A DNA stretch of 64,000 bases from Candidatus Dormiibacterota bacterium (lineage in GTDB: Bacteria > Chloroflexota > Dormibacteria > Aeolococcales > Aeolococcaceae). Below are positions 19,886-20,832 of this stretch, in pieces. The position numbers and the translations under genes were made by a program. The notes under the pieces were generated by a model. It ran no database searches. It was not told the origin of the DNA and saw nothing but the letters and a program-made list of their open reading frames with translations. Numbering within the stretch: the stretch's first letter is position 1; every line of letters begins with the position of its first letter. The DNA lies in the NCBI GenBank assembly GCA_036833315.1, contig DAITPY010000003.1, forward strand, positions 2,745 to 66,744. Direction: 5' to 3'.

Positions 19886-20326
19886 TCAGGTCGCGCAGCA
19901 AGCGGTGGTCGATTCGGTCGCGGTGGCGCAACAACCACCGGTGCCGGCGTCGATTGTCGCAGCGGGAGCGTCGGCGAGCACCGCGTATACCTCCCATCGC
20001 GTGTCGGCGCCCGCAACCCAGACCTTGTCCTGGAGCGCATGACAGCAGGTGACGCCGTCCTCGACCTCGGTGGACAATCCCTGTGCAGCAAGTCGCCGTG
20101 TGGCAGCAATGACTTCGCCGCTCGAACCGACCTCGACGCCGAGGTGGTTGAGTGTGCCGGCTTGCGCCGGATTCTCGAACAGCACCAGCTTCAAGGGCGG
20201 GTCGGTGACGACGAAATTCGCGTATCCCGACCGTCGTTTGGCGGGCTCGGTCTCGAACAGCTTGGAGTAGAACCCGATTGCCTCGTCGAGATCGGACACA
20301 TTCAGCGCGAGTTGGACCCTTCCCAT
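19886..20326 (-). CDS. arsI: ArsI/CadI family glyoxalase-fold protein (C-As lyase / cadmium-induced protein type)
   Basis: Trimmed to ATG 20326: MGRVQLALNVSDLDEAIGFYSKLF...LNHLGVEV...VTCCHALQDKVWV...RWEVY, with C-terminal GGCCATATESTTACCAT. Divergent from arsR. Confidence 0.85.
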   Translation of the reverse strand: MGRVQLALNVSDLDEAIGFYSKLFETEPAKRRSGYANFVVTDPPLKLVLFENPAQAGTLNHLGVEVGSSGEVIAATRRLAAQGLSTEVEDGVTCCHALQDKVWVAGADTRWEVYAVLADAPAATIDAGTGGCCATATESTTACCAT

Positions 20327-20327
20327 C

Positions 20328-20381
20328 TCAGCAGCAGTCGCAGTCGCACGGGCAGGAACCACAGGGGCAGTCGCAGTCCAT
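20328..20381 (-). CDS. Candidate micro-ORF encoding the 17-aa Cys-rich peptide MDCDCPCGSCPCDCDCC
   Basis: ATG 20381-20379, GGGAG SD (20392-20388) 6 nt upstream, 8 in-frame Cys codons, TGA at 20330-20328 one base before the arsI/cadI ATG. Below the track length cutoff. Confidence 0.45.
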   Translation of the reverse strand: MDCDCPCGSCPCDCDCC

Positions 20382-20391
20382 AGCAGTCTCC

Positions 20392-20413
20392 CATCGATAG
20401 ACGTCGATTGATG
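20392..20413. promoter_or_regulatory. Putative ArsR-family operator (22-bp imperfect palindrome)
   Basis: CATCGATA-GACGTC-GATTGATG. A related perfect 8-bp palindrome CATCGATG lies at 20435-20442, inside the promoter spacer. Confidence 0.45.
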
Positions 20414-20420
20414 AGGCCGA

Positions 20421-20450
20421 ATGGTAGCTCGTGGCATCGATGGTTGTCAA
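20421..20450 (-). promoter_or_regulatory. Putative promoter of the micro-ORF/arsI transcript
   Basis: Minus strand: -35 TTGACA (20450-20445), 18-nt spacer, -10 TACCAT (20426-20421). Confidence 0.45.
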
Positions 20451-20454
20451 TGGG

Positions 20455-20460
20455 TAGAAT
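20455..20460 (+). promoter_or_regulatory. Putative -10 box of a leaderless arsR mRNA
   Basis: TAGAAT ends 6 nt before the arsR ATG (20467); no SD. Confidence 0.4.
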
Positions 20461-20466
20461 CAGCGC

Positions 20467-20832
20467 ATGACCACCAGCGCGAAGGCTGCTCTCGCGACAC
20501 TCCAGGCGTTCGACCGGGTCAAGGGCTGCTGCCAGCCGGTGGCGCCTCCCCTCTCGGATTCGCACGCGGACGAATTGGCGGCGCTCTACAGGGCGCTTGG
20601 CGATCCGACGCGTATCCAGATCATTCACATCCTGGACGCCGCCGCGGATCCGGTGTGCGTGTGCGACTTCACCGCTGCCTTCGATCTCGGCCAGCCGACT
20701 ATCAGCCACCATCTCGCCAAGCTCCGCGAGGCTGGGATCGTGACCAGCTTCAAACGCGGGATCTGGGCGTTCTACCAGCTCAATCCGAACATGTCGGCGG
20801 CGGCGCGCTCCGCCATCCAGCCGGTGCGCTGA
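20467..20832 (+). CDS. arsR: ArsR/SmtB family metal(loid)-responsive transcriptional repressor
   Basis: LGDPTRIQIIHILD, sensing motif VCVCDF, recognition helix QPTISHHLAKLREAGIV. Confidence 0.9.
   Translation: MTTSAKAALATLQAFDRVKGCCQPVAPPLSDSHADELAALYRALGDPTRIQIIHILDAAADPVCVCDFTAAFDLGQPTISHHLAKLREAGIVTSFKRGIWAFYQLNPNMSAAARSAIQPVR

Follow-up and report, generated by a model that had tools for sequence, protein, structure and literature searches.

A short cysteine-rich ORF ahead of arsI/cadI in Dormibacterota, a candidate metallothionein-like first cistron of ArsR-controlled transcripts

The arsI/cadI gene of a Candidatus Dormiibacterota bacterium (GenBank contig DAITPY010000003.1) is directly preceded by an unannotated open reading frame (ORF) of 17 codons, eight of which encode cysteine. 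We refer to the whole 64-kb stretch of this contig that we analysed as the window. The micro-ORF, which lies on the minus strand of the window at 20328-20381, belongs to a family that is conserved in front of the same gene in Dormibacterota. Our interpretation is that it is the translated first cistron of an ArsR-repressed ars transcript, and that it encodes a functional metal(loid)-binding peptide, a mini-metallothionein or phytochelatin-like product made together with ArsI/CadI. On the comparative evidence described below we lean towards this reading with modest confidence.

The micro-ORF and its family in Dormibacterota

The reverse complement of the site is ATGGACTGCGACTGCCCCTGTGGTTCCTGCCCGTGCGACTGCGACTGCTGCTGA, which reads from 20381 down to 20328 as ATG GAC TGC GAC TGC CCC TGT GGT TCC TGC CCG TGC GAC TGC GAC TGC TGC TGA and translates as MDCDCPCGSCPCDCDCC followed by a stop. 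This peptide of 17 residues contains 8 Cys and 4 Asp, with five CxC motifs and a C-terminal CC. Its coordinates and translation are as given in the initial annotation of this DNA, and several other details of that annotation were borne out by the sequence: the exact 12-nt direct repeat GCAGTCGCAGTC, whose two copies encode the DCDC units near either end of the peptide (Table 1), the GGGAG motif 6 nt before the ATG, the TGAgATG junction with cadI, and the different frame in which an ORF of 183 amino acids (19886-20437, minus strand) in the ORF track crosses the region. That longer ORF reads the micro-ORF as '...WTATAPVVPARATATAAEMGRV'. When all six frames of the window were scanned, the micro-ORF site was the only stretch of 17 codons without a stop that had at least six Cys. 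Neither the rest of the window nor the 3 kb around cadI in related genomes gave a second copy, and the other Cys-rich stretches met in this search were out-of-frame GC-rich noise.

We fetched 73 genome loci of ArsI/CadI homologues, and made one scan each of genome and metagenome collections. The homologues nearest to the window's ArsI/CadI come from metagenome-assembled genomes (MAGs) of Candidatus Dormibacterota and from soil or peat metagenomes. An ORF of 16-26 codons with 5-10 Cys, ending exactly 1 nt before cadI, is present at 27 of the 29 Dormibacterota-type loci, or 28 of 30 when the window is included. It is missing from all of the roughly 40 cadI loci that represent Actinobacteria and other phyla. 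The initial annotation had suggested searching related genomes for Cys/Asp-rich ORFs before cadI, and had proposed that orthologous loci without the ORF would speak against it. The search succeeded at these 28 loci, and the two exceptions are L020, where the ORF is degenerate and has 2 Cys, and L069, where a 2-nt difference fuses it in frame to cadI.

The fusion in L069 (L069:2932-3010; MDCDCNCGCDGTCDCGCAAD-MGRVQ...) is the only one of its kind among the loci, and it is either natural or an indel from long-read assembly. Several of the genomes are long-read MAGs, in which single indels such as this one are untrustworthy, and we did not use this isolated case as Rosetta-stone evidence of a partnership between the two products. 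Two loci contain decaying micro-ORFs, with 2 Cys in L020 (L020:2940-3000) and 5 Cys in L026 (L026:2945-3000). Three MAGs labelled Saccharimonadales or Acidiferrales (L003, L013 and L022) contain a typical Dormibacterota locus, with promoter, operator, micro-ORF and cadI, and a CadI identity of 76-82%; these contigs are probably mis-binned or mislabelled.

The family consensus is MDCDCxCGCxGTCDCDCxC and comes in two flavours, CPxGxCPC, which is the window's, and CGCDCDGTC. Across the 528 residues of 29 members, Cys makes up 41%, Asp 24% and Gly 14%, and the remainder is chiefly Thr, Pro, Asn, Glu, Ser and Ala. Phe, Trp, Tyr and His are absent from these residues, and Val, Leu, Ile and Arg occur once each. 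Intact peptides have 3-7 CxC motifs, and consecutive Cys codons are present in 13 of 30 members, including the window. All the length differences between the micro-ORF start and cadI preserve the frame. The stop codon is TGA in 30/30 loci, and the spacer base after it is mostly G; the constant TGA could reflect a constraint from reinitiation, ancestry in a TGC-TGA repeat or GC-rich stop usage.

Selection on the translated sequence and coupling to cadI

In the N-terminal codons, where the alignment is gap-free, Cys and Asp codons are invariant at their first two bases and variable at the third (TGC:TGT 13:15; GAC, GAT, GAA and GAG). The mean entropy in these codons is 1.0 at third positions, compared to 0.43 at first and 0.29 at second positions. 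The ratio of nonsynonymous to synonymous differences (pN/pS) among 27 ungapped pairs is 0.25 in the micro-ORF frame; the two remaining frames give 1.72 and 0.93. Synonymous divergence among relatives is substantial (pS about 0.45), yet Cys is almost always kept and the other positions remain acidic or small. At codons that are Cys in both sequences of a pair, TGC and TGT interchange freely (pS 0.54 in 23 pairs with a shared register; pN is zero by construction). At non-Cys codons, pN/pS is 0.38 in the 23 pairs sharing the Cys register; D-G, D-N and D-E changes dominate, and the residues are confined to D, G, N, E, S, T and P. Conservation is thus both synonymous-biased and frame-preserving, which are the two properties that the initial annotation had proposed to look for. 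As judged from these comparisons, purifying selection acts on the Cys and the non-Cys positions of the micro-ORF, and we think it very likely that the micro-ORF is translated and under selection.

The same data bear on the idea, raised when the locus was first annotated, that it functions as a DNA- or RNA-level element, such as regulator-binding repeats or a structured leader, in which the reading frame is incidental. An exact 12-nt direct repeat near the ArsR operator is consistent with such an element. However, nucleotide variation is concentrated at third codon positions, Cys and Asp codons being constant at the two positions before, selection is specific to the micro-ORF frame, and the ArsR operator copies are located outside the ORF. 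The segment of the window comprising the predicted leader, the ORF and the cadI start folds worse than 195 of 200 shuffled sequences (z = +1.76). Over 30 loci the RNA has marginally less structure than its shuffled counterparts (mean z = +0.58, with only one locus below -1), and Rfam gave no match even at E up to 1. On these grounds we rejected a DNA- or RNA-level role, to which we assign next to no probability; a structured-RNA attenuator was discarded on the folding and Rfam results.

The micro-ORF and cadI meet in a TGA-N-ATG or TGA-N-GTG junction at all 30 genome-derived loci, and at four of the five cadI-linked metagenome loci, the fifth having a 2-nt gap. We compared the predicted duplex energies of the start regions with the anti-Shine-Dalgarno sequence. 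Micro-ORF starts have a mean of -10.0 kcal/mol, and 29/29 are at or below -6 kcal/mol; Dormibacterota cadI starts have a mean of -1.4 kcal/mol (1/29 at or below -6), in agreement with the earlier remark that arsI/cadI has no properly spaced Shine-Dalgarno (SD) sequence of its own. Actinobacterial cadI starts, which have no micro-ORF before them, have a mean of -9.6 kcal/mol (85% at or below -6). The sole Dormibacterota cadI start with an SD is that of L026, in which the DGGG codons of the decaying 5-Cys micro-ORF form GGTGGAGG before cadI. Because cadI lacks an SD where the micro-ORF is present and has one in orthologues without it, and because the stop and the start are within a few nucleotides of each other, cadI is likely to be translationally coupled to the micro-ORF by termination and reinitiation. 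The simplest reading is that the micro-ORF fills the space between an ancestral SD and cadI, which would now be reached by reinitiation. The stop-start coupling to an ArsR-controlled arsI/cadI gene that was first proposed for the window therefore holds there, as far as the sequences indicate, and would extend to the family (28/30 loci).

The cadI reading frame is open across the micro-ORF because of the (GACTGC)n composition of the latter. A programmed +1 frameshift producing a fusion protein was considered and rejected by reasoning only, since tRNA-Cys would be unable to re-pair in the shift from UGC to GCU.

If the micro-ORF were purely a device for delivering ribosomes to cadI, its composition would have arisen incidentally, as (GACTGC)n repeats expanded between the SD and the ATG, and the peptide itself would be unselected. 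The micro-ORF is indeed built of hexamer and 12-mer repeats and varies in length in repeat-like units, the coupling architecture is conserved, and (GACTGC)n microsatellites are found elsewhere (L079-L082). Nevertheless, the retention of Cys and of acidic or small residues in the face of synonymous divergence is hard to reconcile with a neutral repeat, which would gain R, Y, S, F and W at its Cys codons and hydrophobic or basic residues elsewhere, whereas the observed level is about 1%. Furthermore, Actinobacterial cadI has a plain SD, so no delivery ORF is needed. We regard this explanation as distinctly improbable.

The promoter-operator region and the arsenic context

The features of the window locus are listed in Table 1. 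Its ArsI/CadI protein scores 180.7 bits against the NCBIfam model NF041414 (ArsI_CadI_VOC; cutoff 116). It belongs to the VOC-fold metalloenzymes of the glyoxalase/dioxygenase type, and has a vicinal Cys pair within TCCH as well as a tail of the form GGCC...CC. The closest chains in PDB are 5dfg and 5c4p (E ~1e-38 over residues 1-120, with the vicinal Cys pair aligned), which we take to be ArsI C-As lyases deposited under a generic name. The divergently transcribed ArsR matches NF033788 at 84 bits, and an Rv2640c-like model at 78.8 bits, which is below that model's cutoff. Family models and sequence therefore agree with the earlier description of a CVC-type ArsR next to an ArsI/CadI with a vicinal Cys pair and a CC...CC tail.

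Table 1. Features of the micro-ORF locus in the window.
Feature	Position	Strand	Details
Micro-ORF	20328..20381	minus	ATG + 16 codons + TGA; translation MDCDCPCGSCPCDCDCC
12-nt exact repeat (GACTGC)2, first copy	20334..20345	minus	Encodes DCDC near the peptide C-terminus
12-nt exact repeat (GACTGC)2, second copy	20367..20378	minus	Encodes DCDC at the peptide N-terminus
Shine-Dalgarno GGGAG	20388..20392	minus	6 nt 5' of the micro-ORF ATG; AGGAGG in relatives
Stop-start junction TGAgATG	20324..20330	minus	1 nt between micro-ORF stop and cadI start; putative termination-reinitiation site
arsI/cadI gene	19886..20326	minus	146 amino acids + stop; NF041414, PF00903
Operator copy O1	20392..20413	-	Imperfect palindrome CATCGATAGACGTC / GACGTCGATTGATG; inverted repeat I1, direct-repeat family D2
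Operator copy O2	20435..20451	-	CATCGATGGTTGTCAAT (+ strand); D2, 76% identical to O1; I2 CCATCGAT/ATCGATGG
Sigma-70-type promoter of micro-ORF/cadI	20421..20450	minus	TTGACA 20450-20445, 18-nt spacer, TACCAT 20426-20421
Divergent arsR	20467..20832	plus	121 amino acids; ArsR/SmtB family, CVC motif, N-terminal GCC; NF033788, PF01022
arsR promoter	20431..20460	plus	GTGGCA, 18 nt, TAGAAT (20455-20460)

The predicted promoter of the micro-ORF and cadI matches the consensus at 10 of 12 positions, and was one of 2 sites found by a promoter scan in which 0.2 were expected; TTGACA and TAnnAT are kept in relatives. The scan reproduced the transcription start near 20414, 5' of the micro-ORF, that had been predicted initially, giving a predicted 5' untranslated region of about 33 nt. 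Operator copy O1 lies between this start and the SD, which it abuts. Its 17-nt operator copy (20392-20408) falls within the palindrome, and ATCAATCGACGTTCATCGAT is nearly invariant in relatives. O2 overlaps the -35 element of the micro-ORF/cadI promoter and is inside the divergent arsR promoter. The form of the operator motif in this family is CATCGATnGnnGTCnAT. The arsR -10 element TAGAAT ends 6 nt 5' of the arsR ATG (20467), so arsR is probably leaderless, and in the related loci that we read TAGAAT likewise lies 6-7 nt from a start codon (ATG or GTG) on the opposite strand and adjoins, back to back, the TTGACA of the micro-ORF promoter. A conserved block, ATTCTACCCATTGACA, consists of these two elements, the arsR -10 and the cadI -35.

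The order of elements is constant across loci: the arsR -10 and TTGACA, O2 over the -35, TAnnAT, O1, AGGAGG abutting O1, a spacer of 5-12 nt, ATG or GTG, the micro-ORF, TGA, one base, and the ATG or GTG of cadI. In 26 of the 29 Dormibacterota genome loci arsR is located 5' on the opposite strand. In the other three, L020, L026 and L070, no arsR was detected in the flank, which extends for only 893 nt upstream in L070. The two loci with decaying micro-ORFs are thus both among the three without a detected arsR. An adjacent ArsR gene, two 17-nt operator copies and a palindrome, conserved across loci, characterize the transcript as an ArsR-controlled operon. In one Dormibacterota lineage there is an acetyltransferase-like ORF between arsR and the micro-ORF promoter (L010:2400-2940, minus strand; identified by eye), which resembles, again by eye only, the phosphinothricin/arsinothricin N-acetyltransferase ArsN and is seemingly split over two frames.

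Downstream of cadI, acr3 and/or arsC (of the low-molecular-weight-phosphatase type) are present on the same strand in about half of the Dormibacterota loci, and from this spacing we infer that arsenic-resistance structural genes share a transcript with the micro-ORF. The arsenic or cadmium context suggested by the initial annotation is thus upheld for arsenic: the relatives are in ars operons, and not in a cadmium context.

The metagenome scan used a context-free degenerate DNA pattern (M-D-C-D-C ... C-D-C-[DG]-C) and gave 15 matches. Five are linked to cadI (one of them with the 2-nt gap), one is cut by the end of its contig, two are linked to arsC-acr3 (L084 and L086), one is alone (L077), one is a rearranged remnant (L090), and five are microsatellites. 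In L084 and L086 an intact micro-ORF (677-733 and 759-809, respectively, on the minus strand of the loci) has the same operator and SD, and about 60 nt further on there is arsC and then acr3 in place of cadI; in L084 an arsM fragment adjoins arsR. We considered whether these two loci derive from a deletion of cadI, and local alignment gave no support for a remnant of its 5' end. In L077 a micro-ORF with 9 Cys (L077:1498-1560; MDCDCPCGRCPCDCGCCCTS) stands alone behind an ArsR promoter and operator, with cadI absent, and the sequence 3' of it is similar to what follows cadI in L076. The micro-ORF module is therefore not limited to cadI: on the predicted transcript structures it is the first cistron of ArsR-controlled ars transcripts in Dormibacterota, and it can persist without cadI.

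The five microsatellites (L079-L082 and L085) are (GACTGC)n tracts encoding (DC)n, on AT-rich metagenome contigs with no ars context, which indicates that such repeats arise independently.

Proposed role and comparison with known systems

We propose that As(III), methylarsenite or Cd(II), the presumed inducers, would release ArsR, so that transcription would begin near 20414 and ribosomes would load at the strong SD and translate the 17 codons. They would then terminate at UGA and reinitiate 1 nt further on at arsI/cadI. Because arsI/cadI has no SD of its own and would be reached by reinitiation, ArsI/CadI would be made only together with the peptide. The peptide, with eight thiols, four Asp and five CxC motifs, may act as a thiolate ligand of As(III), methyl-As(III) or Cd(II), in the manner of metallothioneins and phytochelatins. 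In this way it would keep the metal(loid) buffered, and perhaps also pass it on to ArsI/CadI or Acr3. More tentatively, and with somewhat less confidence than we have in a metal(loid)-binding first cistron as such, Dormibacterota may possess the smallest metal(loid)-binding peptide known to be made by bacterial ribosomes, a 'genetic phytochelatin' of 16-26 residues with an (Asp/Gly-Cys)n pattern. Termination and reinitiation would keep its production in fixed ratio with a C-As lyase-type ArsI/CadI, and within ars operons it would serve as a buffer and chaperone for As(III) or methyl-As(III) (or Cd), a part of bacterial arsenic resistance not recognised before. In a more radical variant, arsenite may bind the nascent Cys-rich chain and directly modulate reinitiation on the next gene.

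Several points count against a role as a metal(loid)-binding peptide. The evidence is wholly comparative, and the organisms are uncultured. The pairs behind the pN/pS values are phylogenetically non-independent and the repeats leave some alignments ambiguous, although a register shift caused by repeats would inflate pN and not deflate it. Tight coupling is not universal, given the distance of about 60 nt to the next gene in L084 and L086. A profile built from artificial fusions retrieved no recurrent natural fusion of the micro-ORF to CadI among its top matches. Neither the described metallothionein families nor the solved structures include a match to the peptide. Lastly, when translation of the next gene is gated by a first cistron so rich in Cys, the arrangement would serve as a sensor of Cys-tRNA too, and sequence cannot separate the two roles.

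As such a sensor, the peptide would be disposable: the speed of the ribosome over 6-10 Cys codons would report on cysteine, which As or Cd is supposed to deplete, and with cadI reachable only by reinitiation, stalling would tune the synthesis of ArsI/CadI. Cys-codon leaders have a precedent in mycobacteria, where leaderless polycysteine short ORFs with at least two consecutive Cys codons act as cysteine-responsive attenuators, forming a 'Cys ribulon' (Canestrari et al. 2020). The Cys codons of the micro-ORF are perfectly kept as Cys with TGC and TGT interchangeable, the micro-ORF is always first in the transcript, and translation of the downstream gene appears to depend obligately on it. Most of the defining features of the mycobacterial attenuators are missing, however. 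Those attenuators are leaderless, whereas the micro-ORF is preceded by an SD in 29/29 cases and in the window has a predicted leader of about 33 nt (predicted -10 ending at 20421, ATG at 20381). They have at least two consecutive Cys codons; in the micro-ORF Cys alternates with Asp or Gly, and consecutive Cys codons occur in the window but in only 13/30 members overall, and so are not a conserved feature. In mycobacteria an RNA duplex hides the downstream SD until stalled ribosomes open it, whereas the micro-ORF loci have neither a duplex to unmask (mean z +0.58) nor a cadI SD. The mycobacterial elements govern cysteine and sulfur metabolism, whereas the micro-ORF precedes arsI/cadI, acr3 and arsC. 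With a 1-nt gap, moreover, stalling would lower the amount of the detoxifying enzyme under thiol depletion, which is not obviously adaptive. The constraint on non-Cys residues (pN/pS 0.38, with D/G/N/E/S/T/P only) exceeds what a codon sensor needs, and the ORF is intact in L077 without any coupled gene. A leader role and a peptide function are not mutually exclusive, but we think it unlikely that the micro-ORF is a thiol-sensing leader with a disposable product.

A third kind of product, the precursor of a ribosomally synthesized and post-translationally modified peptide with thioether- or radical-SAM-modified cysteines, would also be short and Cys-rich with a conserved motif. There is no conserved maturation enzyme nearby, though–the neighbours are arsR, the acetyltransferase-like ORF, cadI, acr3 and arsC, or, in the window, unrelated genes–and no division into leader and core, the whole peptide being the Cys motif. 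We give this alternative hardly any weight. The reading as a mini-metallothionein is probably to be preferred to these alternatives, in view of the constrained non-Cys positions, the absence of aromatic residues, and the retention of the ORF before arsC-acr3 and on its own.

The family is nearly invisible in databases. A profile search (upstream-extended ORFs) of 5.8 billion predicted proteins found one true called member, P0121, so gene callers overlook conserved micro-proteins of this kind. Another ORF of 68 amino acids in the same search, P0122 (L074/L075:4001-4207), contains a long (DC)n/(EC) run (…VMDCDCDCDCDGDCDCECDCERDCERDWGCGG…) and is a weak match (E = 0.09); it lies on a 29-kb contig with no recognisable genes in its context, the neighbours having no Pfam matches, and is probably unrelated to the micro-ORF family. 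With E values up to 10 allowed, neither Pfam, searched with six family members, nor PDB, searched with a profile of 29 peptides, gave a match, and the extended ORF of 40 amino acids gave none in NCBIfam. Full-text literature searches on its motif, on small ORFs of ars operons and on Dormibacterota arsenic genes turned up no description of the peptide. Many database ArsI/CadI proteins (156-189 amino acids long) have a spurious N-terminal extension, such as '...WTATAP..ATATAAEMGRV' or '...TATATAAEMGRV', which is the micro-ORF and operator read in the cadI frame (P0005, P0013, P0026, P0030, P0057, P0118 and others); the 183-amino-acid track ORF of the window carries the same artefact.

If the peptide binds arsenic or cadmium, it would be a new component of ars operons and a gene-encoded phytochelatin-like chelator close to the engineered EC20, and it would bring down the smallest size known for bacterial metallothionein-like products. 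The family is also a natural case for telling a sensor upstream ORF from a functional micro-protein, because the two make opposite predictions for Cys-to-Ser recoding and for cysteine starvation. A natural 17-residue peptide predicted to bind As or Cd, with its own arsenic-inducible promoter and operator, could find use in biosensing or bioremediation.

Metallothioneins are among the known products closest to the peptide. Like them it is of low mass, is at least 30% Cys (41% in the family; 8/17 in the window), has CxC and CC motifs, lacks aromatic residues, uses Asp, Gly, Ser, Thr, Asn and Pro as filler, and is associated with a metal(loid)-sensing regulator. Unlike them it belongs to no Pfam metallothionein family, has no relative in PDB and is much more acidic, and its ORF invariably opens an ars transcript, with translational coupling to an enzyme gene. 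Because the composition fits and no Pfam or PDB match exists, we call it metallothionein-like without assigning it to any described family. The metallothionein-like peptide hypothesis of the initial annotation is, in the same way, favoured by composition, by non-Cys constraint and by persistence without cadI, and lacks the family match. Nearest in size are the very small fungal Cu-metallothioneins, of which that of N. crassa has about 25 amino acids. In a single comparison with the N. crassa sequence, the CxC register aligned with 39-47% identity over 18-19 residues (E ~0.01). The bacterial metallothioneins MymT and SmtA have 53 and 56 amino acids, respectively, and at 16-26 amino acids the micro-ORF peptides are shorter than any bacterial metallothionein known to us.

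In arsRDABC operons the metallochaperone for As(III) is ArsD, which folds as a protein of about 120 amino acids with Cys12/13/18 sites and has the ATPase ArsA as its partner. Like the micro-ORF peptide it is a small thiol-rich product of an ArsR-controlled ars operon, and it is proposed to bind As(III) by its cysteines and pass it to another ars protein, but it is far larger and has no sequence relationship to the peptide. The ORFs that we examined, in which no search aimed at these genes was made, showed neither arsA nor arsD.

Phytochelatins, (gamma-Glu-Cys)n-Gly, differ from the micro-ORF peptide in being made enzymatically with gamma-peptide bonds. Their gene-encoded analogue EC20, the 'synthetic phytochelatin' (Glu-Cys)20-Gly, raised the arsenic tolerance of E. 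coli when displayed on the cell surface, and one construct under ArsR control has also united it with ars genes (PMC4611968), an arrangement that resembles the natural one of the micro-ORF. In design EC20 is the nearest analogue. It is a direct product of translation that has Cd and Hg among the metals it binds, and acidic residues and Cys alternate along its chain as they do in the micro-ORF peptide; it is, however, artificial, fused to a surface anchor, and has Glu where the micro-ORF peptide has Asp. The micro-ORF peptide is furthermore not a pure repeat like phytochelatins and EC20, being interrupted by Gly, Pro or Thr (CPCGSCPC, CDGTC).

With known coupled gene pairs the micro-ORF and cadI share the 1-nt stop-start gap, the missing downstream SD, and the presence of that SD in orthologues without the upstream ORF. 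They differ in that the upstream cistron has only 16-26 codons, and in the strong selection on its own composition. Peptides of these types and coupled cistrons are already known, and the micro-ORF family is set apart by what it combines: it is extremely short, its acidic residues alternate with Cys, it comes first among the cistrons of ars operons, and its coupling to the next gene appears to be obligatory.

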